Below are positions 7,104 through 31,251 of a stretch of DNA of 43,448 bases, in pieces (the first letter of the stretch is position 1; every line of letters starts with the position of its first letter). The stretch comes from a virus. Lineage: Duplodnaviria; Caudoviricetes. The notes below the pieces were generated by a model that worked only from the letters and a program-made list of their open reading frames with translations, was not told where the DNA came from and searched no databases. The position numbers and the translations under genes were made by a program. Where the stretch lies: IMG/VR virus record IMGVR_UViG_3300029171_000016, positions 1-43,448 of that record. One strand, written 5' to 3'.

Positions 7104-7138
7104 GCAAGATTTATAAACTCAGCAGTATATACTCTTCG
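7104..7138 (+). promoter_or_regulatory. Archaeal-type promoter with downstream GTATATAC operator; heads the glycan locus
   Basis: CAAGA-TTTATAAA (7110-7117) 29 nt before ATG 7139; GTATATAC 7125-7132. Confidence 0.75.
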
Positions 7139-7342
7139 ATGAGGGCAAAGGTGAGAGTGATACGTTCTGGTGAGTATCCTGTGTATGGCATTGCGATTCC
7201 AAAGGAGATTGCACTTCTAGTAAAAAATGTCGCATACGATATAGAATTAAGAGGAACTACTCTCGTATTAACATCAGGTTGTGACCTTGAGACCATAAAG
7301 AAAACTGCAAAGGAGTACATGTTTGAAGATGTCAGAGTCTAA
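7139..7342 (+). CDS. AbrB/MazE/SpoVT-like DNA-binding protein
   Basis: KVRVIRSG...YGIAIPKEIA...YDIELRGTTLVL swapped-hairpin pattern; start moved from TTG 7100 to ATG 7139. Confidence 0.65.
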   Translation: MRAKVRVIRSGEYPVYGIAIPKEIALLVKNVAYDIELRGTTLVLTSGCDLETIKKTAKEYMFEDVRV

Positions 7343-8621
7343 GATCCGAGTCGCCATTCTTTCCGATTCTGTTAATTTTCAGACAGGATTTAGGAACCAA
7401 TCCCTGCAGCTAGCGCAATACCTATCCGGAAGGGGATTTGAAGTCCATTACTTTTGTTCAGGATTAAGCGGCCTAGGGTTTAAGGAAGGAGTATTAGAGG
7501 ACGGAACAGTAATTAATTTTCATCTTCACGGACAACACAAAATGCCTTACTTTCAGGATAACATGTCCCATCTACTTAAGAAGTATCAAATTGACTTCTT
7601 CATCATTCTACTCGATACGTTTATGCTTTACGGAAATGATGGATGGTTCGGAAGAATAGACTTAAGTCCTGCTCAATCTGCGTTTTGGTATCCTTCAGAC
7701 GGCGGAGCTGGGCTGCCAAACCACTGTGAAGTAATATTAAAGAAAGTTGACTACCCTGTAGCGATGTCTAAATTTGCTCAGAAACAAGTAAAAGATTATT
7801 ATGGTCTCAACACCGGATATATTCCACACGGAGTAAACCCTGAGAAAATTTTTAAATTACCCGAAGAGGAAAGACAAAAATTCAGATCTCAATGGGGTTT
7901 GAAAGATAAGTTTGTAATCGGAACAGTTATGAGAAATCAGGGAAGGAAGATGCCTGATAAGTTCATTAAAACAATCTTTTCTCTCGCCAACAAATTAAAA
8001 GATAATTCTTTGATGCAGAATTGGGTTATCTTAATGCACACAGACTTTCAGGATCAGGCAGCTCCAGTTGATTTATACAGGTTGATAAGACGCTACAATT
8101 TAGAAAATCGAATAATCAGCACGGGTATGAATGCCTTAAACGGATTCCCCGAAAGCAGAATGAATGAAGTTTACAATCTATTTGATGCCTTCTTCCTTTC
8201 AACGAGTGGGGAAGGATTCGGCATTCCAATAATCGAAGCAATGTCTGCCGAGGTTCCTTGTGTGGTGACAGACTATACAACTACGGAGGAGCTAATAGTT
8301 CATAATCAAGCAGGATTCGGTGCAAAACTAGTAGGCACGCAGCAATTAAGTTTCTTCGATAAACCTGCACAGGAGTATGATAATTTAGTTGCTAACGGAA
8401 CTACTACGGGGGGGTGGCATGTTGAAAGAGGTCTGGTAGACATAGATGATGCTGCGGACAAGTTAATTCAGCTGTACCGCTACCCTGAGCTGAGAAAACA
8501 GATGGGTCTAAACGGAAGAAAGGCCGTCCGTGAGCAATACGATTTTAATAATATTGTAGGATTGGCTTGGGAGAATTTAATCTTATCAGCTCTTGGAAAA
8601 CGTATTGCTAGTCAGTCTTAG
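7329..8621 (+). CDS. Glycosyltransferase, GT4 family (GT-B)
   Basis: TGF N-terminal loop, IPHGVN, RNQGRK, EGFGIPIIEAM signature. Confidence 0.92.
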   Translation: MSESKIRVAILSDSVNFQTGFRNQSLQLAQYLSGRGFEVHYFCSGLSGLGFKEGVLEDGTVINFHLHGQHKMPYFQDNMSHLLKKYQIDFFIILLDTFMLYGNDGWFGRIDLSPAQSAFWYPSDGGAGLPNHCEVILKKVDYPVAMSKFAQKQVKDYYGLNTGYIPHGVNPEKIFKLPEEERQKFRSQWGLKDKFVIGTVMRNQGRKMPDKFIKTIFSLANKLKDNSLMQNWVILMHTDFQDQAAPVDLYRLIRRYNLENRIISTGMNALNGFPESRMNEVYNLFDAFFLSTSGEGFGIPIIEAMSAEVPCVVTDYTTTEELIVHNQAGFGAKLVGTQQLSFFDKPAQEYDNLVANGTTTGGWHVERGLVDIDDAADKLIQLYRYPELRKQMGLNGRKAVREQYDFNNIVGLAWENLILSALGKRIASQS

Positions 8622-9873
8622 AAGTCCATTTTTGGATAACGATAAAATTTACCCAGCCTTAGCTAACTTATATTTAAAGGGAAACCTTAACAAAGAAGGC
8701 ATAAGATCCAAAGTTACGGATGAGTGGTCAAATGAATCTCTGGAGACATATTCTCATATAGGCGTTTCTATCATGACACCTCAAAGAACTTTAGCTAGCG
8801 ATTTTATCGGAGCAGTTAAGAAAAGGTATCCAGATAAAATAGTTATCGCCGGAGGCCCACATGCTAAGTACTATACTTCTGACCTGATTGCGGAGCCATG
8901 GGATTATATAGTGACTGATGATGGTGAAAAAGTCCTACCAAGAATAATTCGTGGAGAAATCCCTCTTTCTCAAAGAATAATTACCGAACATTTAACGGCC
9001 AAAGAGATCGCAGAGCTGCCACGACCAGACAGATTAGGATGTAAAGAATATCTGTCAGGGTTCGGTTATCAATTAAAGGGTCGGAAATCAAGTACGCTAT
9101 TAACAGCAAGAGGCTGCCCAGAGAGGTGCCATTTCTGTGAGGATGCAATGACAACCGTGAAGAAGACACCCTTAGAAAAGATTTGCATGGAGCTAGACGA
9201 TATTAAAGAATTGGGCTACGAAGGAGTATACATCTTTGATGATATTTTTGCTTTAGCTCCGAAGATAACTGAGCCCATCTGTAGGGAATTGCAGAAGAGA
9301 GACTTAATTTACAGATGCAACGGACAAGCAAGAATGATGAGTGAACCATTCATGAAAATGCTTTCTGAAACTGGTTGCGCCGAGATCGCGTTTGGTGCCG
9401 AATCAGGAAGTCAGAAGATCTTAGATAACATTGAAAAGAGAACGAAAATCAGCCAGAACTATGACTTCGTAACTTGGGCGCATAAATACGGCATCCCAGT
9501 TAAGTTATTTATTTTACTGGGGCTTCCCGGCGAGAATTGGGAGACACTCAAAGAGACCGAGAAGTTTATTCAACATTCTCTCCCTTGCGATGTTCAAGCA
9601 GCAATCTATTACCCCTATAAAGGTACACAGATTAGAGACGCGATTGATAGAAAACAAAACTTCGTAGATATTACTTTCAACGGAGAGGGCCTTGGTGCTT
9701 ATGGCCAAAAGGGCGGAAACACAGAAGTCACTATCCGAACAAAAGAGCTATCAAGTGAAGATTTATTAAGCTTTAGGAATTACTTAGTTGAGACGTACAG
9801 ACCTAAAAGTCACTCAGCTTATCAAATGAAACAAAGAAACGAGGAGGACAAATTCTTCAATGAAAGACAATAA
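8593..9873 (+). CDS. Cobalamin-binding radical SAM enzyme (class B methyltransferase-like)
   Basis: YPALANLYL and IAGGPHA B12 domain; RGCPERCHFC CxxxCxxC; FGAESGSQKIL; ILLGLPGE. Confidence 0.9.
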   Translation: MENVLLVSLRSPFLDNDKIYPALANLYLKGNLNKEGIRSKVTDEWSNESLETYSHIGVSIMTPQRTLASDFIGAVKKRYPDKIVIAGGPHAKYYTSDLIAEPWDYIVTDDGEKVLPRIIRGEIPLSQRIITEHLTAKEIAELPRPDRLGCKEYLSGFGYQLKGRKSSTLLTARGCPERCHFCEDAMTTVKKTPLEKICMELDDIKELGYEGVYIFDDIFALAPKITEPICRELQKRDLIYRCNGQARMMSEPFMKMLSETGCAEIAFGAESGSQKILDNIEKRTKISQNYDFVTWAHKYGIPVKLFILLGLPGENWETLKETEKFIQHSLPCDVQAAIYYPYKGTQIRDAIDRKQNFVDITFNGEGLGAYGQKGGNTEVTIRTKELSSEDLLSFRNYLVETYRPKSHSAYQMKQRNEEDKFFNERQ

Positions 9874-11128
9874 ACTTGTAGTGGTTGTAATGGGCCAGAA
9901 TTGCGAGAGATTTATAGACATGTGTCTGGATTCAGTTGAAGATGCAGATGAACTAATATTTTGCGAAGGGCTTGAGCCTTCACCAGAAATTAATTATTCA
10001 GAATCGTATCAGATTTTTAGAAGGAAATTTCCTGCAGGGCATTGGATAGCTCAAGTTTATGACCAAGAAGATAAGACAATGAATGGAAAGCAAAGGAACT
10101 TTTATCTTAATTATTTAAAGAAAGAGTTTCCAGAGCATTGGGCTTTATGCTTGGATGTCGATGAGATAGTTGAAGATCTAAGTAAAGTAAGAGAGTTTAT
10201 CCAAACCGCAGATAAAGGTGTTTATTCTGTTAAGATGAGACATCTGATCGGCGACTTCGGGCATGAAGACGCTACTGTGAAAACACACTGGGTTCCAAAT
10301 AGATTGTTTAAAATTGAATGTGCAGATCACTATCCAGAAGTGGAGCACCCCGTTCTTATAGGAAAAAATGAATCTGTTAAGGCGCAATCAATGGGCGGCA
10401 CGGACTGCACGACAATCTGGCATCTTGCTTATACTCCTAACATGTGGGAAATTAAAAAAAGATATGACAACCATCTTAAAAAATCAAACATGCACACTCC
10501 TGAATATTTGAAGAGCTGGTATTACGCGCATTTATTTGGAACATATCCTAAGAGTCAATTCGATCCAGTTGAGTTACCGAAACAATTATTAGATAAATTT
10601 GGAGTTAATCGTGATGAACTTTACTTCGGCAATAGAGGACTTGAGGTTAAACATTTTGTAGATGCACATCACTGGAAGGAATACTTCAAGCCGGAAAGTG
10701 TTTTAGAAGTCGGATGCGGAAGAGGTCCACGAGTAGCGGCGATGCGGATCGTGGGATTAAAGTGTGAAGGAATCGAATTAAGCCAATGGGCAGTAGATAA
10801 CGCCATTACACCAATCAAGCAAGGAGACATAACAAAAGACTTAGAAGTTTCACCAGCCGATTTAGTAATTGCTTACGATGTTCTTGAGCACTTAGAAGAA
10901 TCTCAACTTGATAGCGTAGTTAATAGACTGATTAACTTATCTAATAAGTATTTGCTAATTTCCGTTCCAGTAATCGGCGATCCCAATTTAATGAACGATA
11001 AAACTCATAAAGTGTTCCGAACTAAAGACTGGTGGAACTCACAATTCACACAGAAAGGCCTCACTAGATTGGAGACGCCAACACACTTTTTATTTCCTCA
11101 TCAGCTATTTCTCTATAGCAAAGTTTAA
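9860..11128 (+). CDS. GT2 glycosyltransferase fused to class I SAM methyltransferase
   Basis: N-terminal QRN...LDVDE (DxD), EHP; C-terminal VLEVGCGRG, GIELS, DVLEHL. Confidence 0.85.
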   Translation: MKDNKLVVVVMGQNCERFIDMCLDSVEDADELIFCEGLEPSPEINYSESYQIFRRKFPAGHWIAQVYDQEDKTMNGKQRNFYLNYLKKEFPEHWALCLDVDEIVEDLSKVREFIQTADKGVYSVKMRHLIGDFGHEDATVKTHWVPNRLFKIECADHYPEVEHPVLIGKNESVKAQSMGGTDCTTIWHLAYTPNMWEIKKRYDNHLKKSNMHTPEYLKSWYYAHLFGTYPKSQFDPVELPKQLLDKFGVNRDELYFGNRGLEVKHFVDAHHWKEYFKPESVLEVGCGRGPRVAAMRIVGLKCEGIELSQWAVDNAITPIKQGDITKDLEVSPADLVIAYDVLEHLEESQLDSVVNRLINLSNKYLLISVPVIGDPNLMNDKTHKVFRTKDWWNSQFTQKGLTRLETPTHFLFPHQLFLYSKV

Positions 11129-11152
11129 ATATCCCAGTATATACTACTAGGG
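11119..11152 (+). promoter_or_regulatory. Archaeal-type promoter with downstream GTATATAC operator
   Basis: CAAAG-TTTAAATA (11124-11131) 29 nt before ATG 11153; AGTATATACT 11136-11145. Confidence 0.75.
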
Positions 11153-11578
11153 ATGCAAAAAAAAAGAGTTCAAAAGAGAAAATATTTACCAACGATAGCG
11201 CAACTGTGTGACCGTCTTTCTATTGTAACATTAAAATCAATTAAAATTCCCGAGAACAAAGCTGAATACGAGAAGGAAGCTAAAGAAATTATGCACGACA
11301 TCAGCCAGTTTTTAGGCAAAAATTCCGGGGAGTTGTTCCGAGCAATCCAAGTTAATATTCTTGCCAACGAACTAATTTGGGCGAACGAAGCTAAAGCACG
11401 GCGCGGAGAAGCACAAGACCTTGAGTTATTGAAACTTACACATTCTATCAACCGCGTTAGGAATCAAGCGATGAATGTCATTAGCAACATTGTCGGCGAG
11501 CGGAAAGACTTGAAATTAGACTACATGGACGCAGAGCATACTAAAAAGTTTGGATACGACTTTGGAGGAATCCTTTAA
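11153..11578 (+). CDS. Helical protein, DUF4254/DUF6165-like (glycan-cluster associated)
   Basis: TIAQLCDRLSIVTLK...NELIWANE...INRVRN pattern. Confidence 0.5.
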   Translation: MQKKRVQKRKYLPTIAQLCDRLSIVTLKSIKIPENKAEYEKEAKEIMHDISQFLGKNSGELFRAIQVNILANELIWANEAKARRGEAQDLELLKLTHSINRVRNQAMNVISNIVGERKDLKLDYMDAEHTKKFGYDFGGIL

Positions 11579-11679
11579 TGCGCATTGAAGATTACTTAAT
11601 GTGGTTTATAGGATTTTCTTTTGGTTGTTTACTATTAGCAGTCGCTTATCTCTTAATAAAAGTGGGAGGATTATTTTGA
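11578..11679 (+). CDS. Small membrane peptide (33 aa; not in track)
   Basis: MRIEDYLMWFIGFSFGCLLLAVAYLLIKVGGLF; TAATG coupling. Confidence 0.55.
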   Translation: MRIEDYLMWFIGFSFGCLLLAVAYLLIKVGGLF

Positions 11680-11825
11680 GAGAAACAACCAAAGTAGTTA
11701 GAGTATCATGCCACAATATTCGATCGTTTAAAGGAGAAGGTTGCCAAGAAGCAGCAAGGAAATACGCAATGAAATTGTTAAGAACGGGTACACTATTTAT
11801 AAAAATCGAGGAAGCAACAGAATGA
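11676..11825 (+). CDS. Small hypothetical protein
   Basis: TTG start after GGGAGG; overlaps both neighbours by 4 nt. Confidence 0.45.
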   Translation: MRETTKVVRVSCHNIRSFKGEGCQEAARKYAMKLLRTGTLFIKIEEATE

Positions 11826-12121
11826 GATATGTAATTGAAACAACCGAACATGGAAATGAAGAAGCCGTTTGGAACACAATTAATTCTCTTAAGGATAAGA
11901 ATTTAATTAACGTCGTTGAAAAAGGCGATCCTATTGAGAATATGAAGGAAGATCTGAGAAAGGTTGCCCGCTCAGTGGAAGTGTTAGAAAAAGTAGGTAT
12001 TGATAAAGAGTTATTGATAGCGTGGATTAAACGGAAGACATCGCTATCAATTAGCGTGATTGAGACATGTTTGGAAACCGAAAGAGATTTCTACAAGAAG
12101 CTTGGAGTCGAACTCAAATGA
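11822..12121 (+). CDS. Hypothetical protein
   Basis: Start moved to ATG 11822 (ATGA overlap). Confidence 0.6.
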   Translation: MRYVIETTEHGNEEAVWNTINSLKDKNLINVVEKGDPIENMKEDLRKVARSVEVLEKVGIDKELLIAWIKRKTSLSISVIETCLETERDFYKKLGVELK

Positions 12122-12870
12122 AAACAAAGGAAGAACTAATAAAATTTGAAGAAGACGTAGTAGAAATGTACAAGCAAGGAAAGTTGCGCTCACCAATTCA
12201 TCTGAGTGGAAGTGTCGACGGAAAGCTTGAGGATTTTCTAATCGAATTATTTAAAGAGATAAAACCTAGTGACTGGGTATTCTCAACTTACAGAAGTCAT
12301 TATCACGCGCTGCTTAAGGGAATTCCAGAGGACTGGCTGAAGCAATGGATTTTAGATAACAAATCAATCCATGTTATGAACTCTCAACACAAATTTATTA
12401 CAAGCGCTATTGTCGGCGGAACTATTCCTGTTGCCCTCGGCGTTGCATTAGGAATTAAACTAAAGCAGGCTGCTATCGCAGATGAAATCAAGAGTCAAGT
12501 GAAAGCCGCAGTAGAAGAATCTGGTTATGAACTGGAAAAAGAAATACAAGTAGAACCTCAAAACTTACCACATGTATGGTGTTTTATCGGCGATATGACA
12601 GCAAGTCTAGGGATATTTAAAGACGCACTTTTATACGCTTCCGCTAACGATTTACCAATTACTTTTGTTATTGAAGATAATGGACTAAGCACAGACACGC
12701 ACACTTCAGAGGCTTGGGGATACGATGTTAGAGACGTATTGAAAACATATAGTCAACTTTATCCGGAGATGATTAAATACATTCAATACGTCAGAACTTA
12801 CCCCCATTACGGATGTGGGGTGTTCGTAGATTTCAAAGAAGATATTAAACAAGATGGGAGTAATTTCTAA
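12118..12870 (+). CDS. ThDP-dependent E1-alpha-like subunit (pyruvate/acetoin dehydrogenase family)
   Basis: PIHLSG, STYRSHYHALLKG, SAIVGG, GDM-x26-DN ThDP motif, YPHYG. Confidence 0.88.
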   Translation: MKTKEELIKFEEDVVEMYKQGKLRSPIHLSGSVDGKLEDFLIELFKEIKPSDWVFSTYRSHYHALLKGIPEDWLKQWILDNKSIHVMNSQHKFITSAIVGGTIPVALGVALGIKLKQAAIADEIKSQVKAAVEESGYELEKEIQVEPQNLPHVWCFIGDMTASLGIFKDALLYASANDLPITFVIEDNGLSTDTHTSEAWGYDVRDVLKTYSQLYPEMIKYIQYVRTYPHYGCGVFVDFKEDIKQDGSNF

Positions 12871-13439
12871 TGCCAAAAGGATACAAACATAAAGAAAATT
12901 GTCAATGTAAGTTATGCTTAGGAATTGTTGGATTTACAAAAGGAAACGACTATGGAAAATTAGCGAAACATAATAATAAAGGAACAAGCAACCCGATGTA
13001 CGGAAAAACACAAACGCATCAAACAAGAGAAAAAATAAGAAATAAGGCAATTGGAAAGAGAAAGTCCCCAGAAACAGAATTTAAAAAAGGAGAGGTTCCA
13101 TGGAACAAAGGGAAAAGAGATTACCAACGAGGAATAAAGAAGAAATTTCCTGAAGAAGTTAGAAGAAAGTTAATCAATAATTTAAAAAGTTTTACAGGTA
13201 AGCCAGCAGATAAAGCTTATGAAAGAATATTAAAGGAATGCGAAGAGTTAAAAAAACAAGGATTCAGAACAATCCCTATAGGTAAGGTAATTCCAGATAT
13301 AATCGCAATCAAAGATAATAAGGTCTTTGCTGTAGAAGTTGAATATAACAACCCAAATTATAATAAATACAATCAAGTAGAGGGAATATTTGATGATGTT
13401 ATTTGGATTATCAGGAGGAGAGATGGTAAGTTATCTTGA
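12870..13439 (+). mobile_element. Free-standing homing-endonuclease-like gene (NUMOD3-like repeats plus PD-(D/E)XK domain)
   Basis: NPMYGKTQTHQTREKI, ETEFKKGEVPWNKG NUMOD-type motifs; IPDIIAIK...AVEVE; sits between alpha and beta genes. Confidence 0.7.
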
Positions 13440-14001
13440 AGAATTAAAGAGAGCAATGAAACTTTTAGAAAAAAAGGGCCATATATTTTTAGGACAGAAT
13501 GTTAGATTTGGTGGCACGAGTATGTTCCACACATTTAAAGAATTTTCTGATGATATAAAAATTGAAACGCCAGTTTTTGAAGAAATGCAAATGGGAATGT
13601 CTACAGGGATGGCTTTAGAAGGTTTGAAAATATGTTCAGTCTACCCGCGAATGGATTTTCTTATTCTGGCCGTTAATCAGCTCGTCAATCACATGGATAA
13701 ACTAAGTGAAATGTCGGACAACCAATTCAAATTGAAGGGATTAATTATTAGGACGTGCGTTGGATCTACAAAACCTCTAATGCCCGGTCCGCAACATTGT
13801 CAGAACTATACAAAGGCTTTAAGAGAAATGTGCAAACATATTAAAGTAGTAGAGTTAACGAGAGCTGACCAAATAGTCGGTGCTTACGAGGACGCGACGA
13901 TCTCAGAAACCCCAACAGTAATCGTCGAGCACAGCGATTTATACAATGAGGAATTAAAGGATGAGTTAATTGCTTCCCGGCAAAAAGAGGTAATTCGATG
14001 A
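13423..14001 (+). CDS. ThDP-dependent E1-beta-like subunit (pyrimidine-binding domain only)
   Basis: FLGQNV, ETPVFEEMQMGMSTGMAL, YPRMDFL, GPQH; AGGAGGAG before ATG 13423; C-terminal domain absent. Confidence 0.88.
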   Translation: MVSYLEELKRAMKLLEKKGHIFLGQNVRFGGTSMFHTFKEFSDDIKIETPVFEEMQMGMSTGMALEGLKICSVYPRMDFLILAVNQLVNHMDKLSEMSDNQFKLKGLIIRTCVGSTKPLMPGPQHCQNYTKALREMCKHIKVVELTRADQIVGAYEDATISETPTVIVEHSDLYNEELKDELIASRQKEVIR

Positions 14002-14387
14002 GAGGAGTGGTAATTAGAAAAATTAAGCAAGTCCACGAAGACGAAAGAAGAAGAATAATGGAAATTATGAATGGTGAGCTTGGAATCCGAAATCTTAAAA
14101 TCTTAGAAGTCAAGGAAGATTGTTACTTAGGAGGAAAAGAAGGGCACTCGCATTTGTACGCCGAGATAATGTACATCATGAAAGGCAAGGTAAGGGATTA
14201 CGTAATGACAAACCTAGATACGGGAGAGTCTCAGAGTTATGATTTCGAAGAGGGAGATATAGTTTTTAGAACCGGAAGGATAGTTCATGGCGGAATATTT
14301 CTTGGAGGAACGATTGTTGTTGACGCTAGCTGTGAAACATACATCAGTGCGGACTTTAATGACATTCCGCGTGGAGAGACAAAATGA
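13998..14387 (+). CDS. Cupin, NDP-sugar isomerase/epimerase-like (FdtA/WxcM/RmlC-like)
   Basis: HEDERR, GHSH-x3-E...KG, IVHG. Confidence 0.7.
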   Translation: MRGVVIRKIKQVHEDERRRIMEIMNGELGIRNLKILEVKEDCYLGGKEGHSHLYAEIMYIMKGKVRDYVMTNLDTGESQSYDFEEGDIVFRTGRIVHGGIFLGGTIVVDASCETYISADFNDIPRGETK

Positions 14388-14626
14388 AGGTGCTTATAAT
14401 TTTAGCTTTAGTATTGGCCTTACTTGTATCTTGCGTTCTGGCCGGTTTATTAATTCAACATTCCCTCCCTTCATGTGTCGAATATGAAGAGTTCTGTACA
14501 ACCGACAGAGGATATTGGATGTATAATCCAGCTTTAAAAATGATGACTTATCAACCCCTATATGTTGAAGTTGAATGTAGCGAGGAAGGAAGCACACTTG
14601 AAAAGAGGTGTGTTGCCAGAAGATGA
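14384..14626 (+). CDS. Small membrane-anchored Cys-containing protein
   Basis: N-terminal hydrophobic helix, 4 Cys downstream. Confidence 0.6.
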   Translation: MKVLIILALVLALLVSCVLAGLLIQHSLPSCVEYEEFCTTDRGYWMYNPALKMMTYQPLYVEVECSEEGSTLEKRCVARR

Positions 14627-14883
14627 TATTATTTTTCCTGCTTATGTTATTTCTTGTTTTAATAGTGTTCATATTCATAAACGCAGGTAACCCCAGTTGG
14701 TTCACACCGCCAGCCCCTTTCTTCCTAAGATTCTTAGCAGCGTATCCTTCTCATCATAGATGTAATGAATGCGGGAAGGTCTGTTGGATTTGGCAGGATT
14801 GTACAAGACCTTCAGAAGCTTACCATGAAAAATGCTTTGACAAGAAATACAATTTTAAGAGGAACAAATGGCTAGGATTTTAA
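14623..14883 (+). CDS. Small membrane protein with Zn-finger-like C-terminus
   Basis: N-terminal TM; CNECGK...HEKC. Confidence 0.6.
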   Translation: MILFFLLMLFLVLIVFIFINAGNPSWFTPPAPFFLRFLAAYPSHHRCNECGKVCWIWQDCTRPSEAYHEKCFDKKYNFKRNKWLGF

Positions 14884-15884
14884 TAACAGGAATCAACGGA
14901 ATGGTAGCAAGTCACTTAGCAGAGCTTTGCTTAGAGAAAGGAGATGAAGTTTATGGTACTTACCGCTGGACGGAGGATGATTCAAACATAAGGCACATCA
15001 AAGACAAAATAAATTTAATTCCGATGAATTTAAATGACTTCGGAAATGTCTTAAAAGTAATTGGACAAGTTAAGCCAGACGCTATTTCTCATCTTGCAGC
15101 CGAGTCGTACGTTGGAGACAGCTTCGACCATCCAGAAGAATCAATTAGAACGAATACGCTAGGAACACTTAATATCTTAGAAGCAGTTAGAATGGTGCAG
15201 AAATCTGTTGCAGAGCATAGTTATTTTTCAGATAAAGAAGGAGCGACCTTCATTTATGACCCGGTAATTCACGTTTGCTCATCAAGTGAAGTTTATGGTT
15301 TAGTCACTCAAGACTTAGTTCCGATTAAAGAAGATTGTAGATTCAACCCCTGCAATCCGTATGCCGTTGGAAAAGTAGGTGCCGATATGCTGGCTTTGAT
15401 GTACTACACGAATTATAAGCTAAAGACGATAAGAACAAGAATGTTCACCCATTTTTCGTATAGAAGAAAAATGTTAAGTGCAGAGGTAAACTTCGCAACA
15501 CAGATCGCTAAGATAGAGGCCGGCAAACAATCGCCAGTCTTATGGCACGGTAATCTAGAATCAGTTAGGACTTGGGCGGATGCAAGAGATGCAGTAAAAG
15601 CGTATTATCTTATCTTAACGAAGCCGGCAAGATACGGAGAGGTTTACAATATTGGAGGAAATACAACTAAAACCATTAGAGAGATGTTAGACTATCTTCT
15701 TGGCTTAAGTACAAGAAAGGACATAGAAATCCGGCAAGATCCTAAGCTCCTAAGGCCTTACGATGTAACACTTCAAATTCCAGACTGCACGAAGTTTAAT
15801 CGGCATTATCCAGAATGGTTCCCCTCAATATCTTTTGAGCAGAGTCTCCAAGATTTGTTGAATCAAAAGAGGAAAGAAGTATGA
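14868..15884 (+). CDS. gmd: GDP-mannose 4,6-dehydratase-like extended SDR
   Basis: ITGINGMVASHL, HLAAESYV, SSSEVYG, NPYAVGK (YxxxK), GNLESVRTW, LLRP.DV. Confidence 0.82.
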   Translation: MARILITGINGMVASHLAELCLEKGDEVYGTYRWTEDDSNIRHIKDKINLIPMNLNDFGNVLKVIGQVKPDAISHLAAESYVGDSFDHPEESIRTNTLGTLNILEAVRMVQKSVAEHSYFSDKEGATFIYDPVIHVCSSSEVYGLVTQDLVPIKEDCRFNPCNPYAVGKVGADMLALMYYTNYKLKTIRTRMFTHFSYRRKMLSAEVNFATQIAKIEAGKQSPVLWHGNLESVRTWADARDAVKAYYLILTKPARYGEVYNIGGNTTKTIREMLDYLLGLSTRKDIEIRQDPKLLRPYDVTLQIPDCTKFNRHYPEWFPSISFEQSLQDLLNQKRKEV

Positions 15885-16729
15885 AGAGGATAATCATAAC
15901 TGGAAGTCGTGGAATGATTGCAAGAGAATTAATTGAGCAATTAAATAAAGGAGATGTAACTATTATTTGTGCGGACATAAAAAACGATGTTCCAGTTGAC
16001 TTGAGGAATTTTAATTACTGCCTTCAGTTGTGCGAAGGAGCTGATGAGGTGTATCATTTAATGGGCGTAAAAGGCAATCCAAAAATGACTAGTGAAAGGC
16101 CAGTCGACTTCATGGGACCAATGCTTCAATGCGATACTAATATGATATTGGCGGCTCAAATTCACGGCGTTAAGAAGTTTCTTTACACAAGTTCGATTGC
16201 TGTTGAGAACCCAGATAGCGATAAGTATCCGGCGTGGGCAAAACAAACCGCGGAAACACTAATCGAAGCTATGAGAATTCAGTACCCAAAAGGAACAAAA
16301 TACTGCGTGGTGAGGCCGGCCAATGTCTACGGGAGATATGATAATTTTAGCAATCCAGACGCAATGGTGATAACTTCACTGATTAGAAAAGCATTAGACA
16401 ACGAAGAACTCGAAGTCTGGGGAGATGGACGAGAGGTAAGAAGTTTCATTAATGCGAAAGATGTTGCTGGCGGGATGATTAAGACTATGAAAAAGATGCC
16501 AAACTTCCCGATAAACCTCACAGGACCTCAAGCATCAATTAAAAACGTAGCAGAAATCATTAGAGATTCTATAGGAAAAGAGATTAAAATCAAGTACAAC
16601 CTTTCTAAGGCCTCGGGCAAAAAGAGTCGTGTGATGGCCTCTAACGGATTGTTAGTTGGGTTCAAGCCAAAGATTAGTTTAGAAGATGGAATCAAGGAGG
16701 TAATTGAATGGGTCAAACAAAAATCCTGA
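15881..16729 (+). CDS. NAD(P)-dependent epimerase/reductase (GDP-fucose synthase / GDP-mannose epimerase-like)
   Basis: TGSRGMIA, VRPANVYGRYDNF, VWGDGREVRSFINAKDVA. Confidence 0.82.
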   Translation: MKRIIITGSRGMIARELIEQLNKGDVTIICADIKNDVPVDLRNFNYCLQLCEGADEVYHLMGVKGNPKMTSERPVDFMGPMLQCDTNMILAAQIHGVKKFLYTSSIAVENPDSDKYPAWAKQTAETLIEAMRIQYPKGTKYCVVRPANVYGRYDNFSNPDAMVITSLIRKALDNEELEVWGDGREVRSFINAKDVAGGMIKTMKKMPNFPINLTGPQASIKNVAEIIRDSIGKEIKIKYNLSKASGKKSRVMASNGLLVGFKPKISLEDGIKEVIEWVKQKS

Positions 16730-17400
16730 TAGCGATGCCCGTTCACAACGATTTTGAAGCTTTCAAGTACGCCATAAACGGAATAATTAACAGCACCGCT
16801 TATCCGCACTATACGATATTGATAATTGAATCAGAGTCTACCGACGGGAGTAAGGAATACGCCGATCTCTTACCCAAATTGTTTCCTAGAGTAGATTTCA
16901 TTATTAAACACACTAAGAAGGAAGGTCCACTGAAAGCGTATAATTTTGCGTTTGATTTGGCAAAGGAGATGAAGTGCGATCTGTACTTGACGCAAACGGA
17001 TGTAGTTCACTTTAGACTTTACAAAAGAGATTGGATGTGGGAGCTACATGAGATGTCAAAGAATCCTTCAATAGGGTTGGTTGCGCCGCTTGGAGCTTGG
17101 GGAGTGGCGTATGAACTGGGAAACCCATTTAATTGGATAGGAGGATGGGCTTGCTTTGTTCCTTATAAGACTATTGAGCTGATCGGCGGATATGATGAGG
17201 GATACGAAATAGGAGACTTGGTCGACGTAGATTACTGTTACAATGTAATGCAGAAAGGACTAAAATTAGTTCAAGCAGACTATTGGGTTCAGCACCACTG
17301 GATGACAGCCCACGTTAACGAGCAGCGCGCAGACTTAGAACAAATTAAGCAAAGAAACCGAAAGAGGTTCAAGGAGAAGTGGAAAATTGGTGTGGATTGA
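16708..17400 (+). CDS. Glycosyltransferase, GT2 family
   Basis: IAMPVHN, ESESTDGS, QTDV, IGGYDE, DVDYC. Confidence 0.85.
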   Translation: MGQTKILIAMPVHNDFEAFKYAINGIINSTAYPHYTILIIESESTDGSKEYADLLPKLFPRVDFIIKHTKKEGPLKAYNFAFDLAKEMKCDLYLTQTDVVHFRLYKRDWMWELHEMSKNPSIGLVAPLGAWGVAYELGNPFNWIGGWACFVPYKTIELIGGYDEGYEIGDLVDVDYCYNVMQKGLKLVQADYWVQHHWMTAHVNEQRADLEQIKQRNRKRFKEKWKIGVD

Positions 17401-18082
17401 TAAGAAAGCCGAAGAACAAGTCTTAATGTTAAGAGACGAATTTGATATTCGACAATACGTAGAAACCGGAACGTTTAAAGGAATCAACGCCAGATTTCAA
17501 AGTCGGTATTTTGAGTCGGTGATAACGGTTGAGAAAGATATTGACAATTTCATGGAGGCCCACAGAAATTTTAAAGGGCTGCCGAACGTGTCTCTATTCT
17601 TAGATGACAGCGCTTCCTTTTTAAGTAGCTTTAAAACTAAAACAAGAAGTGTTCCCCCAGTTCTTTTCTTTCTAGATGCTCACTTCTACGATCCCAAACT
17701 TACTTCGGACAAACGATGGGTTGTCAAGAATGAATTAAAAGCTTTAGAAGGATTCAGTAATTGTTTAATTATGATTCACGACTTTGACGTCGGTGGATTA
17801 GGACACCTAGTATACGACGGAGAACACTTGAATTTTGATTTAATTAAAGAGGATATTCTGAAGGTTAATCCAAAGTTCAGGTTTTATCACAACGAGAGGC
17901 AAACTTGTGACATAATGACGCCCGAAGATCTGACAACACATGGTATCGCTCCCTATGCAGTTGCTCTAGATAACTTAAAGTACGCCTATACAAATGATAC
18001 AAAAAAGTATCGAGGCATCCTCTATGCAACTCCAAAAGAGTTAGACTTAACTAAATACGATTTAAGAGAATATGGAACTTAA
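17387..18082 (+). CDS. Class I SAM-methyltransferase-like protein
   Basis: YVETGTFKG, TVE, DS, FFLDAH, IHDF. Confidence 0.65.
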   Translation: MVWIDKKAEEQVLMLRDEFDIRQYVETGTFKGINARFQSRYFESVITVEKDIDNFMEAHRNFKGLPNVSLFLDDSASFLSSFKTKTRSVPPVLFFLDAHFYDPKLTSDKRWVVKNELKALEGFSNCLIMIHDFDVGGLGHLVYDGEHLNFDLIKEDILKVNPKFRFYHNERQTCDIMTPEDLTTHGIAPYAVALDNLKYAYTNDTKKYRGILYATPKELDLTKYDLREYGT

Positions 18083-18674
18083 CTTACGAGGAAAAAAAGC
18101 ACTTGTCACAGGAGGTTCGAGCGGCATAGGTTTAGCAATAAAAGAGGCTTTAGAAGCGGAAGGGGTTGATGTTACTAGTTGGAGTAGGAGAGAAGGAGCT
18201 GATCTTAAGAAAGGCTTGTGGAAAATACCTGAGTTCGATTTTGATATAGTAATTCATTGCGCCGGAGGATTCGGGACGGCTGGATTTGAGGAAGATTACT
18301 CGTGCATGAAATTGAATTATCACGTGTTAAGAGAGCTCACCCAAAAGTTCTTAGAGAGGCAGACCAATTGGGGAAGGATTATCGCAATAAGTTCTATTTA
18401 TGGTAAAGAGAAGGGGCCAAATCCTTTGTTTACTGCGGCGAAAACTGCTCAAATTGCTTTCATGAAATCTTTAGCGGGAAGATATGAGGGTGTGACATTC
18501 AATGTTATTTGTCCGGGCCATATCGATGTGGGCAAGCCTTTTCCAGATAACCCGAAAGTTATTGGAAAACCTGAAGATGTTGCTGGGATAGTTACCTTTC
18601 TTTGCTCAGATATAGCAAAACATATAAATGGTGCAGTGATAACAGTGGACGGAGGAGAATCATATAGCTTTTAA
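18072..18674 (+). CDS. Short-chain dehydrogenase/reductase (classical SDR)
   Basis: ALVTGGSSGIG, ISSIYG, FTAAK, NVICPG, NGAVITVDGG. Confidence 0.88.
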   Translation: MELNLRGKKALVTGGSSGIGLAIKEALEAEGVDVTSWSRREGADLKKGLWKIPEFDFDIVIHCAGGFGTAGFEEDYSCMKLNYHVLRELTQKFLERQTNWGRIIAISSIYGKEKGPNPLFTAAKTAQIAFMKSLAGRYEGVTFNVICPGHIDVGKPFPDNPKVIGKPEDVAGIVTFLCSDIAKHINGAVITVDGGESYSF

Positions 18675-18675
18675 A

Positions 18676-19563
18676 ATGGCACAAAATAAAATAGCGGTGT
18701 TAATTAACTACAAAGATCGCCCGAGCGAGCTTTCACATTTGTTGTTAAGTCTCAGGAATCAAACAATTAAAGATTTTGATGTTTACATCTTGGACGACTT
18801 CTCTGGAACACCAATTCAGACTTATCATTTTATGAACTGCATACTAACAAGAATGAGAATAGAGTCATTTAAAGTTTTTTACAAGCGAACAGATTTTCCG
18901 CACGGAGTTAGCAAAGCGCGGCAAGCTATTGTAGAATGGGCAAACCCAGAAAACTACGAGTATTTTCTCCGAGTGGATGACGACGTTATTTTGGAACCAA
19001 ATTACATCGAAGAGTTATTTGAAGTAATCCAAAAAGGATACCACTTGGCCTCCGGAGTAACGATTGCTATGAACTTTCCATCTTTCAAGAGAGAAAGTAA
19101 ATTCTTGAATGGAGTTGGAAACCGCGTGGTCTTAGATGAAGAAGGAAACTATATTTGGAATGGTGATGACTGCGGAATGGAGTACGTAGACAAAGCAATT
19201 TTACCAATTCATCACTTCAGGAGCTGCGCGCTATATCAAACTGAAATCCACAAGGCCGGCGTTAACTATACACCGAACAGGCTGACTAAGCACGGGTTCC
19301 GAGAAGAACAATTATTTAGTTATAAAATTCAGATGGCTGGATTTAAGATGGGATTCAACACCAAGGCAGTCAATTGGCATCAGATGACTCCAAGCGGAGG
19401 AGAAAGATTCGCAGAAAGCAATGAACTAATTAAAATTAATGAAGCGGTGCTCAAAGAGTTCACGAAGGAAAACAAAGAAAAACTACGAGAGATATTTAAA
19501 TCAGATTGGTTTCCAAGCGAAACTGAAAGACTAAAGGAGACAAATTTAGCAAACAAAATATGA
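18676..19563 (+). CDS. Glycosyltransferase, GT2 family
   Basis: LRNQT, ILDDFS, GVSKAR, RVDDD, FREE. Confidence 0.85.
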   Translation: MAQNKIAVLINYKDRPSELSHLLLSLRNQTIKDFDVYILDDFSGTPIQTYHFMNCILTRMRIESFKVFYKRTDFPHGVSKARQAIVEWANPENYEYFLRVDDDVILEPNYIEELFEVIQKGYHLASGVTIAMNFPSFKRESKFLNGVGNRVVLDEEGNYIWNGDDCGMEYVDKAILPIHHFRSCALYQTEIHKAGVNYTPNRLTKHGFREEQLFSYKIQMAGFKMGFNTKAVNWHQMTPSGGERFAESNELIKINEAVLKEFTKENKEKLREIFKSDWFPSETERLKETNLANKI

Positions 19564-20651
19564 AAGGCATAAACGTAATCGGAACAATTTTAGGCGGCAC
19601 AGGGTATGACAGCCACACAAGGGGACTAGTGAACGCACTAATGAAGTTTACAGAAGTAAAGTTAATTACAAATATTCCTGCGGGAATGGAAATCCACTTA
19701 AATGATCGTGAATTAAACGCTGTCAAGAACACAAAAGAGTATGACACTAACTTGATAATAACAAACCCATCCGGCTGGAGAATGCACTCTACCAATAAGG
19801 TAAATATCGTTTACTTCGTGTGGGAAGGCGATAAGATTCCATTAAGTTTTATCGACGAAATATTAAACCCCGAGATTAAATATGTAATAGTTCCAAGTAA
19901 GCATACTTATGACGCCATTATTAACACCGCGAATACTGTCGAAGCAAAAAATCATAAAGTCATAGAATATTTCAGTAATAAATTAAAGATAATTCCCCAC
20001 GGAGTTAATCTAGAGAAATTTTATCCTATGGAAAAACCAAAAGACAAGTTCAGATTCTTTGCGAACAAAGGGTTCAGGAACTTAGAAGACAGAGGAGGCA
20101 TCCAATATTTAATTAAAGCGTTTAGCGAAGAATTCAAAGCAAATGAAAACATTGAATTAGTTATCAAGATCAATCCTTCTTACGGCATCCCAAACATTCA
20201 TGAGATAATGAGCAAACTTGGAAACAAAGAAGGAGCGCAAATAAGATTTATTACAGACTTCATCAAGTACGAAGACTTAGTCAAAATTTACAACCAGTGT
20301 CACGCATTTGTCAGTCCAACACGTGCAGAGGCCTTTAACATTCCGTGCTTGGAAGCATGTGCCTGCGGGCTCCCAGTGATTACAACCAACTTCGGCGGAC
20401 AAACAGATTTCATAGATAATTCTAACGGATGGGTAATTGGAGGAGAGCTTACTGAAGTAAAACATGAGCTGCAATATGAAGGGATAAAATGGTTAACCCC
20501 GGACATCGGTGCTTTAAAAGTTGCGATGAGACAAGCGTTCGAGGATACTCGGTTAACCGAAGAGAAATCTAGTAAGGCTTTAGAAACAGCTAAATTGCTT
20601 ACTTGGGATAATTCCGCGCAAAACTTAATCTTCGCGATTGAGAACAGATAG
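19560..20651 (+). CDS. Glycosyltransferase, GT4 family
   Basis: GTGY, VPS, IIPHGVN, EAFNIPCLEACACGLPVI. Confidence 0.9.
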   Translation: MKGINVIGTILGGTGYDSHTRGLVNALMKFTEVKLITNIPAGMEIHLNDRELNAVKNTKEYDTNLIITNPSGWRMHSTNKVNIVYFVWEGDKIPLSFIDEILNPEIKYVIVPSKHTYDAIINTANTVEAKNHKVIEYFSNKLKIIPHGVNLEKFYPMEKPKDKFRFFANKGFRNLEDRGGIQYLIKAFSEEFKANENIELVIKINPSYGIPNIHEIMSKLGNKEGAQIRFITDFIKYEDLVKIYNQCHAFVSPTRAEAFNIPCLEACACGLPVITTNFGGQTDFIDNSNGWVIGGELTEVKHELQYEGIKWLTPDIGALKVAMRQAFEDTRLTEEKSSKALETAKLLTWDNSAQNLIFAIENR

Positions 20652-21509: not shown

Positions 21510-21991
21510 ATGAAATAGTGAGAAATCCTACGCCGGGTGAAGTCACAGGGGCAGATCCAATCACTCCAATTGAAACTCCTCAGGGAAGAGTTTTAACAGC
21601 AGAGGATAAATTTAGAAAACTTCTCGCAGAAAAAAGACTTGAAGCTCAGCAAAAAGGACTTCCATTCGCAGCACAAGTCGCTTACGATGAATGGAAAACA
21701 TATTACGAAGAAGAAGTCACAAAGCAGCGGAAGAAGTATGGTTACGTAAAAGAGGAAATCGCCCCATTGAAGATAGACTGGAATAAATATTCAGACTTAA
21801 AGAACTTTGATCTCTTGGAAGAAGGAGAAATCTTAGATGATTACCTTTCGAAGCGTTATACTCAGTTAATCTACGTAAAGAAGAAAGTCTACCAGTTCAA
21901 AGGGTATTACTATAAGTACATAGTAATGGAGGACGGAATCGAAGCGGTGAAGAGACAACTAGGCAATAAGCAGGAGGTAAAGTCCAAGTGA
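21506..21991 (+). CDS. Hypothetical protein
   Basis: GGAGGTG SD, coupled. Confidence 0.7.
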   Translation: MNEIVRNPTPGEVTGADPITPIETPQGRVLTAEDKFRKLLAEKRLEAQQKGLPFAAQVAYDEWKTYYEEEVTKQRKKYGYVKEEIAPLKIDWNKYSDLKNFDLLEEGEILDDYLSKRYTQLIYVKKKVYQFKGYYYKYIVMEDGIEAVKRQLGNKQEVKSK

Positions 21992-22383
21992 AGATAACGG
22001 AAGAAAAATTCAAGAGCGCAGTCAAGGATAGCGGAGGGATTATTACCCTAATCGCACAAAGACTAGGAGTTACAAGAAAAGCGCTGTATGAATATATCGA
22101 AAAGAAAGAATTTCAGTCACTAATAAATGATGAAAAAGAGAGTATTCTAGACTTGGCTGAGAGTAAGTTACTAAACAAACTAAACAAGGACGTAGATTGG
22201 GCAATAAAGTTCATCTTGACAACACGCGGCAAACACAGAGGATATATTGAGAATATCACAAACGAGATTAACTTCCTGAAACAAGAGGTTAACAATGCTC
22301 CTCAGTACAAAATAGAAATAATTAAACCTAATGACAATACACTTGAAGTGGTCCCCGAGCAAGAAGCAGCTGACAGCGTTTAA
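21988..22383 (+). CDS. terS: Terminase small subunit
   Basis: N-terminal HTH (IAQRLGVTRKALY), LDLAESKL...AIKFIL..RG..RGY; directly upstream of TerL. Confidence 0.8.
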   Translation: MKITEEKFKSAVKDSGGIITLIAQRLGVTRKALYEYIEKKEFQSLINDEKESILDLAESKLLNKLNKDVDWAIKFILTTRGKHRGYIENITNEINFLKQEVNNAPQYKIEIIKPNDNTLEVVPEQEAADSV

Positions 22384-23695
22384 TTATTTAGACGACAAAG
22401 AAACAACTGAAATTCTATACGGCGGAGGGGCCGGCGGCGGTAAGTCTCACTTAGGCTGTGTCTGGCTAATATTCTCATGTCTAAGGTATCAAGGCAGCCG
22501 TTGGTTAATGGGCCGAGCGCATCTTAAGACATTGAAGGAATCTACATTATTAACTTTCTTTAGAGCGTGCAAGGACTTCGGCTTAAAGAAAGACCAAGAT
22601 TACAAATACAATTCCATTCTAGGAGTTATTACGTTCGCAAATGAGAGTGAAATCTACCTCAAAGATTTGTTTGCTTACCCTTCAGACCCAGAGTTCGACG
22701 AGTTAGGTTCTACAGAGTACACTGGAGCATTCATAGATGAAGCAAGCCAAGTAACTCAAAAGGCTTACGAAATAGTAATGTCCAGACTGAGGTATAAGTT
22801 AGACGAGTTCGATCTCATTCCTAAACTCTTAACGGCCACAAACCCAACAAAGAACTTTCTCTATCAGGAATTCTACAAGAACTGGAAGGATAATAGACTA
22901 CCTAAGTACCGTAAGTTTGTTCAGGCGCTAGTAGGAGATAACCCCTACATGCCGCATCACTACGCAGAAAACCTATCTAAACTTGACAGAATCAGCAAGG
23001 AGAGACTTCTGTATGGTAACTGGGAGTACGACGATGATCCTACGAGATTATTTGAGTATGAGAAGATTCTTGAGATGTTTGACAAGGAATATTCACCCGG
23101 ACATAAAGACGAAAAGTACATTACGGCAGACATTGCAAGGTATGGAGACGACAAAACCGTTATCTGCGTATGGTATAATATGTACATTGTTAGATTACTT
23201 GTTCTCCAGAAGAAGAGTCTAAAGGAAGTCCGTCAACTAATTGAAGCGATTTGCAAGCAAGAAGGAATAGAACTAGATAACGTAATCGTGGATGAGGACG
23301 GCATAGGTGGAGGAATAGTAGACGAAATGGGTGTGAAGGGCTTTGTTAACAACTCCAGACCATTAGAGAAGCTTAACTCTAACGAGAACACATCTAACTT
23401 TCAAAACCTTAAGTCCCAGTGTTACTTTTACTTAGCGGACGCAATCAATCAAGGAAAGATAGGATGCGGCGAGAAGAATATTGAGATTAAGAAAAGAATC
23501 ATCGAAGATCTTGAGCAAATCAAGCGCCATGATGCGGATAAGGATGGAAAGCTAAAAGTCACCCCAAAGGAGATTATTAAGGAGATGATGGGACGTTCGC
23601 CAGACTTTGCTGACGCGATTATGATGAGAATGTTCTTCTTGTTAAAAGAACCTTATAGGCCAATTATTATGGGTGGCCCAGCCAGAAGATGGTAA
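22331..23695 (+). CDS. terL: Terminase large subunit
   Basis: Walker A GGGAGGGKS, Walker B FIDEA, ATNP, nuclease DIARYGDD and SPDFADA. Confidence 0.96.
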   Translation: MTIHLKWSPSKKQLTAFNYLDDKETTEILYGGGAGGGKSHLGCVWLIFSCLRYQGSRWLMGRAHLKTLKESTLLTFFRACKDFGLKKDQDYKYNSILGVITFANESEIYLKDLFAYPSDPEFDELGSTEYTGAFIDEASQVTQKAYEIVMSRLRYKLDEFDLIPKLLTATNPTKNFLYQEFYKNWKDNRLPKYRKFVQALVGDNPYMPHHYAENLSKLDRISKERLLYGNWEYDDDPTRLFEYEKILEMFDKEYSPGHKDEKYITADIARYGDDKTVICVWYNMYIVRLLVLQKKSLKEVRQLIEAICKQEGIELDNVIVDEDGIGGGIVDEMGVKGFVNNSRPLEKLNSNENTSNFQNLKSQCYFYLADAINQGKIGCGEKNIEIKKRIIEDLEQIKRHDADKDGKLKVTPKEIIKEMMGRSPDFADAIMMRMFFLLKEPYRPIIMGGPARRW

Positions 23696-23704: not shown

Positions 23705-23756
23705 TAGTATATACTATCTAGTTTAACATTTAAAAGCTTTAAAGATATAGATCTAT
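23705..23756 (+). promoter_or_regulatory. Late promoter: GTATATAC 22 bp upstream of TATA
   Basis: TAGTATATACTA 23705-23716; TAACA-TTTAAAAG (23729-23736); GTG start 28 nt on. Confidence 0.7.
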
Positions 23757-30631: not shown

Positions 30632-30850
30632 ATGACAACAGGAAGTACAGTAAAAGGAACAAAAACAGGAATGGTAGACGGGTTAGCCTCGCAAGGGCAG
30701 ACAGTCACGCTTGTAAATGGAAATCCCGATGGAATTATTACGGTAAATGCCGGCAGTCAATTTGCCGCAGACTATACTATTGGAAGTATTTACATGGGGT
30801 TGGCCGTCGGAGGAAGTTCATGGATTTGCTTAGGGAGTGTAGCTGCTTAA
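30632..30850 (+). CDS. Small virion protein
   Basis: AGGAGGT SD; G/S/T-rich. Confidence 0.7.
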   Translation: MTTGSTVKGTKTGMVDGLASQGQTVTLVNGNPDGIITVNAGSQFAADYTIGSIYMGLAVGGSSWICLGSVAA

Positions 30851-30851
30851 A

Positions 30852-31244: not shown

Positions 31245-31251
31245 GAGTTAC

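Follow-up and report, generated by a model that had tools for sequence, protein, structure and literature searches.

The window analysed here is the whole linear contig IMGVR_UViG_3300029171_000016 (43,448 nt), and the subject of this work is a locus of sugar-pathway and glycosyltransferase (GT) genes at positions 7139-20651, which probably serves to glycosylate the particle of a tailed virus. Nearly every gene of the window lies on the + strand, and neither a tRNA gene nor a terminal repeat was found in it. The contig starts within a gene and has no terminal repeat, and therefore, it is not a closed genome. The HK97-fold capsid, terminase, portal and tail tube expected of Caudoviricetes are present; the genes downstream of the locus encode the terminase and portal, a protease, the HK97 capsid and tail tube, and LamG proteins. 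The G+C content stays even across the locus borders.

Genes of the locus

A preliminary description of this DNA had credited the locus with about 30% of the contig and with five GTs (one fused to a methyltransferase), a Gmd-like dehydratase, an epimerase/reductase, a cupin, a two-subunit thiamine diphosphate (ThDP) enzyme, a short-chain dehydrogenase/reductase (SDR), a second methyltransferase-like protein and a B12 radical S-adenosylmethionine (SAM) enzyme. The share is 31.1%, and all the listed sugar and GT genes were found, all on the + strand, by comparisons with Pfam, NCBIfam, PHROG, the ESM Atlas and the PDB. The span also holds an AbrB-like open reading frame (ORF), a DUF4254 protein, a NUMOD3 gene and small ORFs. 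The ORF of the second methyltransferase-like protein is present at 17387-18082, but its identity is a language-model lead, and no match was obtained in Pfam or NCBIfam. The genes are as follows.

7139..7342, +, AbrB-like regulator candidate (label from reading of the sequence), heading the operon; orthologue directly before GT4a in several relatives
7329..8621, +, GT4a, core glycosyltransferase, GT-B; E-X7-E motif EGFGIPIIE; PF00534 E 1e-16; phrog_2170
8593..9873, +, B12-binding radical SAM enzyme; CX3CX2C intact; slot held by divergent paralogues in relatives
9860..11128, +, GT2 domain fused to a class I methyltransferase, core gene; DXD kept in 26 of 26 aligned rows
11153..11578, +, DUF4254 protein; Pfam match below cut-off; in 32 of 80 viral ThDP loci
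12118..12870, +, ThDP enzyme, E1-alpha-like subunit; PF00676 E 4e-9
12870..13439, +, NUMOD3 homing-endonuclease-like insertion between the ThDP subunits, outside the pathway
13423..14001, +, ThDP enzyme, shortened E1-beta-like subunit; pyrimidine-binding domain only
13998..14387, +, cupin; ESM Atlas features 0.96, TM (template modelling) score 0.74-0.81 to sugar-pathway cupins
14384..14883, +, two small ORFs, each with a hydrophobic segment and strongly hydrophobic; no orthologues found in relatives
14868..15884, +, NDP-sugar 4,6-dehydratase, GDP-D-glycero-D-manno-heptose type; PDB 7US5 E 9e-66
15881..16729, +, Fcl-like epimerase/reductase, by homology
16708..17400, +, GT2b, accessory glycosyltransferase; in 13 of 25 relatives
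17387..18082, +, probable class I O-methyltransferase (language-model lead); in 6 of 8 ThDP-positive relatives and 0 of 17 others
18072..18674, +, FabG-like SDR; in 5 of 8 ThDP-positive relatives and 0 of 17 others
18676..19563, +, GT2c, core GT-A enzyme, virus-specific; PDB matches generic
19560..20651, +, GT4b, core glycosyltransferase; motif EAFNIPCLE

No GT of the locus has a hydrophobic segment above 1.3 (19-residue mean), and the virus-encoded GTs are predicted to be soluble. GT4a, which has 673 homologues at E<=1e-40, and GT2c are the candidate initiating enzymes. GT4b shows weak similarity to the GT4s of rudivirus, actinophage and chlorovirus (B736L). The B12 radical SAM enzyme is likely a C-methylase, and the cupin, for which neither a Pfam match nor a PDB sequence match was obtained, is likely a sugar epimerase or isomerase. 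HNH genes resembling the NUMOD3 insertion sit at varying places in relatives. GT4b is split by an inserted ORF in the relatives G003, G013 and G014 (L175:5-1393, L202:8970-11329 and L203:8379-10084); the insert of G014 is DUF559 endonuclease-like, and introns or homing elements may account for these splits of a core gene.

A virus family with a fixed core and a swappable cassette

The capsid protein has 949 homologues, with 341 IMG/VR matches, and no close cultured relative was found by capsid, the best match showing about 25-36% identity over part of the protein. The terminase, used as an anchor, gave no IMG/VR relative; the capsid search succeeded. A GT4 was present in 14 of 15 long capsid-selected records, the exception (G015) being a 20-kb fragment. 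Twenty-five relatives were read, 14 chosen by capsid, one by tail tube and 10, out of 18 GT2c records, by GT2c; they include the near-duplicate pairs G001/G002, G003/G011 and G012/G024. The four core GTs (GT4a, the GT2-methyltransferase, GT2c and GT4b) occurred together in 21 of the 25, and in each of the other four the locus lies at a contig end. When the relatives selected through a GT are set aside, 12 of the remaining 15 (chosen by capsid or tail) have the complete core, and in the other three it is cut by contig ends. The synteny search across IMG/VR that the preliminary description had proposed as a check recovered the same gene order and neighbours, which were kept in all five capsid-chosen relatives with terminal repeats. 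The locus is real and viral, as had been claimed, and a chimera is excluded in practice.

The large terminase does follow the locus, but six small ORFs intervene (20682-22383, the last being the small terminase), and a position beside the packaging genes is not general, as the locus of larger relatives sits behind the tail genes. GT2c accompanies the family capsid in 14 of 18 records. In a scan of 185,579 prokaryote genomes (GTDB), near-full-length GT2c matches were confined to one complete viral contig and one 4-kb contig, and no full-length cellular orthologue was found beyond these two.

The variable cassette lies between the core GT genes. The ThDP pair, cupin and dehydratase are found together in 8 of the 25 relatives (the beta subunit of G022 being a partial match only), and cupin and dehydratase are present in all eight ThDP-positive relatives. 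The SDR and the second methyltransferase occur only with the ThDP set, even where relocated behind the tail genes (G005 and G007). Elsewhere in the family, the alternative cassette genes encode a UDP-sugar dehydrogenase, an aminotransferase, an FkbM methylase, an HddA-like kinase and an RfaE-like nucleotidyltransferase, and the locus of G002, G007 and G009 contains inserted DNA methylase genes. Taken together, the family is large, uncultured and tailed, its four-GT core is fixed, and its sugar cassette is swappable.

Gly-Ser signature of the virion proteins

The preliminary description had named virion proteins as the target without giving evidence; a Gly-Ser signature of the outer virion proteins now supports this, indirectly. 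The structural proteins and the terminase are listed below.

21988..23695, +, terminase small and large subunits (Pfam, PHROG)
26175..28202, +, two-LamG head-region protein; 20 Gly-adjacent Ser
29230..29709, +, capsid decoration (stabilisation) protein, 159 aa, proposed main acceptor; weak match to HFTV1 gp18
29709..30566, +, HK97-fold major capsid protein; one conserved Gly-Ser (Ser56, 57 of 62); C-terminus ITTS/ITTA/ITTT
30632..32959, +, small head and neck proteins; Gly-Ser rich at 30632, 30852 and 31628, not rich at 32057
32979..33983, +, tail tube, P74-26/T5-like fold, 334 aa; 13 Gly-adjacent Ser
35659..42820, +, LamG hub, small baseplate proteins and 1105-aa fibre-like protein; Gly-Ser rich

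In 21 structural proteins of the window, the pair G-S occurred 96 times against 51 in shuffled sequences (1.9-fold, z 7.3) and S-G-T occurred 21 times against 5, and the turn pairs Asn-Gly and Asp-Gly were flat. In 18 non-virion proteins and enzymes, G-S occurred 11 times against 16 (0.7-fold). For the comparison between viruses, one uniform definition of the structural module was used. Thirteen family modules gave 1.53- to 2.26-fold for G-S and 2.2- to 8.0-fold for S-G-T, and ten further family members gave 1.21- to 2.19-fold and 2.5- to 5.0-fold, respectively. The values from six cultured tailed viruses, five of which have a homologous tube, were 0.82- to 1.26-fold and 1.1- to 1.7-fold. For the 317 ORFs of a Nanoarchaeota bin, a candidate host, G-S was 0.95-fold (1.22-fold in its 15 S/T/N/G-rich ORFs). 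Among orthologues, the excess was observed in the decoration, neck, tube, hub and baseplate proteins, and was lacking in the portal, protease and tape measure. The N-sequon enrichment expected for AglB-type N-glycosylation of the virion was looked for and rejected, as N-X-S/T was 1.19-fold (1.07-fold without the LamG proteins) versus 1.5-fold in the S/T/N/G-rich host proteins.

The serines beside glycine are also conserved, at 0.71 versus 0.31 for other serines. The values were 0.30-0.42 for Gly-adjacent Thr, Asn, Asp and Ala, and 0.41 for Gly-adjacent Ser in inner proteins and enzymes. In the decoration protein, Ser30, Ser38, Ser46, Ser77 and Ser147 are each at least 90% conserved, and the Gly-flanked sites lie in loops or at strand ends of a model with a predicted local distance difference test (pLDDT) score of 82. 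Its match to HFTV1 gp18 had E 4e-5 in a small set, and the fold assignment rests on this weak sequence match; HFTV1 gp18 binds the outer capsid surface, according to PMC12494034. Ser77 is invariant (59 of 59), and the glycine follows it in 28 sequences, precedes it in 31 and is on neither side in none. Such a side-swap of glycine around a fixed serine was found at five sites in two proteins (Ser77, Ser46 and Ser147 of the decoration protein and two in the 30632 protein), with glycine never missing from both sides; on a rapidly built capsid tree (56 rows), some 10 changes are needed to account for it.

The tail tube model (pLDDT 72) resembles the P74-26 and T5 tubes. In the tubes of cultured viruses without GTs, 4 of 35 site cells were kept versus 184 of 575 other conserved cells. 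Among 97 full-length tube homologues, 85 have 8-15 Gly-adjacent serines and 12 have 1-7. Distant tubes carry 8-13 of them at new positions, and some keep none or one of the family positions. Tubes from outside the family (P0239, P0229, P0255, P0259, P0260 and P0265) are also rich in Gly-adjacent Ser, at other positions.

Predicted donor sugar

The Campylobacter GDP-6-deoxy-heptose pathway includes a dehydratase, a cupin and an Fcl-like reductase, and the locus encodes a similar set. The best PDB match of the dehydratase, 7US5, is the Campylobacter GDP-D-glycero-D-manno-heptose 4,6-dehydratase, and GDP-mannose dehydratases matched at about 1e-30. Identity with Gmd was rejected from this best match and from a score of 133 bits versus the gmd equivalog cut-off of 415, so that GDP-mannose as the starting sugar, as previously suggested, is not supported. 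Cellular relatives of the cassette enzymes show 41-53% identity to them. An HddA-like kinase gene lies within 8 kb of five of the nine closest cellular dehydratase matches, in some cases with HddC and GmhA; two of the remaining four are on 4-kb contigs. HddA-like genes are also present in the relatives G016 and G026. From the best match and the HddA linkage, the enzyme appears to belong to the GDP-manno-heptose 4,6-dehydratase type.

A proposed role of two-subunit ThDP enzymes is the attachment of a pyruvate-derived acetyl branch at C4, which is reduced at a later step (PMC4753412). By analogy, the ThDP pair likely adds a two-carbon branch from pyruvate and the SDR likely reduces it. With the heptose-type dehydratase match, this precedent makes a branched, methylated 6-deoxy-heptose derivative the likely product. 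The AviB-type layout is present, the E1 alpha/beta pair being accompanied by cupin and dehydratase in 8 of 8 and by the SDR in 5 of 8 ThDP-positive relatives.

The sugar module is less rare than had been stated. The ThDP alpha query gave 207 IMG/VR matches, and of the 80 kept, 73 have a beta subunit nearby and 79 lie outside the family's GT locus, which accompanies the pair only in L006. Aquatic-type viral contigs of up to 335 kb (L001-L080) commonly encode the compact ThDP pair together with Fcl-like enzymes and DUF4254, mostly without the family's GTs. Large-phage ThDP loci contained three S/T/G-rich ORFs without the Gly-Ser signature, too few to judge.

Probable promoters and operator

The palindrome GTATATAC occurs in seven copies in the window versus 0.47 expected by chance. 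Three copies, at 1503, 7125 and 11137, lie between a TATA-like box and the ATG; the other four, at 23707, 28203, 32419 and 38285, lie upstream of the TATA box. The locus and the structural genes do share a viral promoter/operator motif, as had been noted, but the palindrome stands on opposite sides of the TATA box in the two.

7110..7133, +, TATA-like box then GTATATAC, 6-7 nt before the ATG; likely leaderless promoter with the operator over the start site
11125..11145, +, second promoter of TATA box and downstream GTATATAC; not conserved in four relatives inspected
23707..23735, +, late-type promoter, GTATATAC 5' of the TATA box; also at 28203, 32419 and 38285

The layout of 7110-7133 recurs before the AbrB-like gene of G009, and relatives show the late layout as well, with a variant palindrome core. 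We infer that one factor may repress early genes and activate late ones, in which case synthesis of the enzymes would precede that of the virion proteins. Candidates for the GTATATAC-binding factor are two small ORFs, at 7139 and 21032, each conserved in relatives. A repeated CAAGCGAG word was observed 5' of the tail-terminator-like gene (window 32400-32510) and in most relatives.

Host and remaining parts of the window

The TATA-type leaderless promoters are archaeal in type, and the best cellular dehydratase match is from Woesearchaeota (53%). Relatives were binned with Nanoarchaeota and Promethearchaeota, and since others were binned with bacteria, binning is weak host evidence. The Nanoarchaeota bin that holds a relative encodes AglB. 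The virus likely infects archaea. The relative of that bin, G016:C19, exists as a free circle of 63 kb whose ends share a 127-nt repeat, and was rejected as an integrated provirus; G008 was flagged as a provirus, and no recognisable host flank was found in it. Two Woesearchaeales proviruses are listed in PMC11705971, in the accessible part of which the word stem 'glycosyl' is absent.

No polymerase, primase, helicase or integrase was recognised in window positions 1-7100. A metallophosphoesterase weakly like the PolD small subunit opens the contig. About 660 nt at 1793-2452 are without a long ORF and include an AT-rich palindromic stretch near 2190-2260; this gap is a possible origin, promoter pair or small RNA. 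An exact 46-nt tandem duplication lies at 3333-3424, in a gap free of long ORFs; it may have arisen recently or through faulty assembly. In G016:C19, a larger relative, genes for PolB, Mom, RtcB and tRNAs are present. The window lacks a ParB-DNA methylase fusion that is encoded immediately 5' of the terminase in most small relatives (L173:14750-16054, L175:3630-5054, L178:10632-11843 and L181:14569-15816).

Proposed pathway and alternatives

We consider it fairly probable that the locus encodes a cytoplasmic, virus-borne O-glycosylation of Gly-flanked serines on outer virion proteins, the glycans ending in a sugar that varies between strains and is probably branched and methylated. The operon would likely be read before the structural genes, since its start site is overlapped by the shared operator, which at the late genes is located 5' of the TATA box. 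From homology, the dehydratase would convert host GDP-manno-heptose to a 4-keto-6-deoxy sugar, and the cupin and Fcl-like enzyme would then epimerise or reduce it. The ThDP pair would attach a pyruvate-derived acetyl branch, which the SDR would reduce to a hydroxyethyl group, and methyl groups may be added by the methylases and the B12 radical SAM enzyme. One or two of the core GTs would recognise [T/I/A]-G-S-[P/V/I] and [T/I/A/V]-S-G-[T/C/A] in the decoration, neck, tube and baseplate proteins, and the remaining core GTs would extend the chain. Tailed virions assemble in the cytoplasm, and therefore, neither a flippase nor an oligosaccharyltransferase would be needed. The resulting coat would vary between strains and would likely serve to shield or stabilise the particle.

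Several observations weigh against this explanation. The G-S values of G019, G023 and G025 (1.21- to 1.36-fold) overlap the control range, for G-S alone, and the family fragment L451 gave 1.21-fold. Contigs without a GT4 match gave 1.52-fold (L448, 21% complete) and 1.26-fold, with S-G-T at 2.35-fold (L450, complete), and L449, in which GT4 was not searched for, gave 1.61-fold. Pooled ratios can be inflated by single conserved motifs, since the terminase gave 1.58-fold for G-S and GT2c 3.7-fold for S-G. Only 2 of the approximately 10 side-swaps are forced by well-supported branches of a tree that is unfinished, Ser291 of the tube lies inside a strand and is kept in two of five control tubes, and the major capsid protein has a single site. 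The 'outer' protein set of the conservation analysis was defined after the first enrichment result had been seen. The genome has no heptose kinase or nucleotidyltransferase, and therefore, the donor must come from the host. Because signature and locus are both family traits, their link may reflect one shared origin rather than repeated co-evolution, and the motif may be inherited structure. Early timing equally suits DNA or host targets.

It is unlikely that the GTs act instead at a few other virion sites, such as the capsid C-terminal Ser/Thr as in mycobacteriophages, with Gly-Ser as an inherited structural turn or the mark of another modification. C-terminal glycans are reported on the mycobacteriophage capsid and tube (as cited in PMC12619734), the capsid ends in ITTS, ITTA, ITTT or ITSS in 109 of 120 homologues, and Gly-Ser fits tight turns. 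The final capsid residue in these 120 is Ser or Thr in 86. However, it is Ala in 32 and Gly in 2, that of the tail tube is aromatic, Thr, Asn and Asp beside Gly are not conserved like Ser, and the pattern spans several unrelated proteins. Remodelling of the host lipid-linked S-layer glycan through the host flippase and AglB, masking a receptor or altering symbiont attachment, would leave the virion signature unexplained, and the fixed four-GT core fits poorly with varied host glycans. It would suit the AglB of the Nanoarchaeota bin, the AglJ-like GTs adjoining cellular kin of the dehydratase, the LamG lectin-like domains of the virion, the early-looking promoters and the two small hydrophobic ORFs of the locus, but the latter are not conserved in relatives and no integrase was detected among the scanned window ORFs; we hold it to be improbable.

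Glycosylation of the viral DNA after replication, as protection against restriction, appears very improbable. GT4b just reaches the PF20706 GT4-conflict cut-off (26 versus 26 bits), and the DNA methylases inserted in the locus of three relatives and the early timing would agree with such a role. On the other hand, relatives retain ordinary DNA methylases, GATC (0.62-fold) and CATG (0.72-fold) are still avoided, and Pfam comparison of 60 window ORFs, several small ones of which are unannotated, revealed no base hydroxylase, hydroxymethylase, dNMP kinase or polymerase; the absence of a base hydroxylase, noted earlier, was also confirmed in the PHROG comparison. The chance that a host glycan cluster was joined by mis-assembly or recent capture is negligible: the cellular kin of the cassette enzymes would allow it, but independently assembled relatives show the same order and neighbours, including all five with terminal repeats among the capsid-chosen ones, the G+C content is even over the borders, and the operator is shared with the rest of the virus. 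As a whole, the earlier interpretation is partly supported.

Comparison with known systems

Virion glycosylation in mycobacteriophages is alike in that a tailed virus uses its own soluble GTs to place glycans on virion proteins without a lipid carrier, as is predicted here. Their glycans are at capsid and tube C-termini, whereas many internal Gly-flanked serines are implied here, and the present locus differs further in its five GTs, donor-sugar synthesis and archaeal-type promoter system. Among the virus-encoded systems for virion-protein glycosylation, those of chloroviruses and mimiviruses and the GTs of rudiviruses and other archaeal viruses are also alike, but their virion classes differ. 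Chloroviruses combine a conserved glycan core with strain-specific sugars and methylation, and their glycans are Asn-linked; giant viruses have far larger genomes, of which glycosylation genes take up little.

The contrast with archaeal viruses drawn earlier was overstated, as many of them encode GTs according to PMC13700489, and GT genes near structural genes are noted in PMC11706807 and PMC10541130. GuangzhiV1, a tailed Asgard virus of about 36 kb, similarly encodes three GTs together with a GDP-sugar dehydratase and a methyltransferase; modification of viral or host proteins has been proposed as their role. In the annotation and description of it covered here (PMC13700489), it is set apart by a sheath and a 169-aa tube (here a sheathless 334-aa tube), and its locus of about 6 kb has three GT-B enzymes and a true Gmd-type match, is without ThDP, cupin and radical SAM genes, and is reported with neither a family-wide core nor an acceptor motif.

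The Campylobacter pathway is alike in its heptose-type dehydratase, cupin and Fcl-like reductase. The C4-acetyl branching systems AviB1/AviB2 and Pau11/Pau12 (PMC4753412) share the two-subunit ThDP enzyme and ketoreductase, but here the beta subunit is shortened and the reductase is an SDR rather than an aldo-keto reductase. These systems serve capsules or antibiotics, and their combination on a heptose here is a prediction.

GT cassettes are known from mycobacteriophages and from GuangzhiV1. The virus family and the candidate acceptor motif appear to be new, as neither the family nor a Gly-Ser motif of virions was found described in a search whose coverage excluded subscription journals and bioRxiv supplements. 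We tentatively extend the proposal to the whole family, at somewhat less than even confidence: tailed viruses of 40-95 kb, likely of DPANN archaea, would possess a complete O-glycosylation system with Ser bearing Gly on either side as the acceptor rule, nearly all outer proteins reshaped around this rule, and a swapped cassette for a branched, methylated heptose-derived sugar, amounting to a viral serotype locus. GT cassettes are common in phages and archaeal viruses and their targets are nearly always guessed; here a candidate acceptor motif is readable from sequence. Because it is predicted in this way, the question is testable without culturing the virus, using four soluble enzymes, one 159-aa protein and named serines. 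If true, this would be a new rule of prokaryotic O-glycosylation, with new peptide-specific GTs and a likely undescribed branched sugar, and glycosylated virions would become predictable from genomes.

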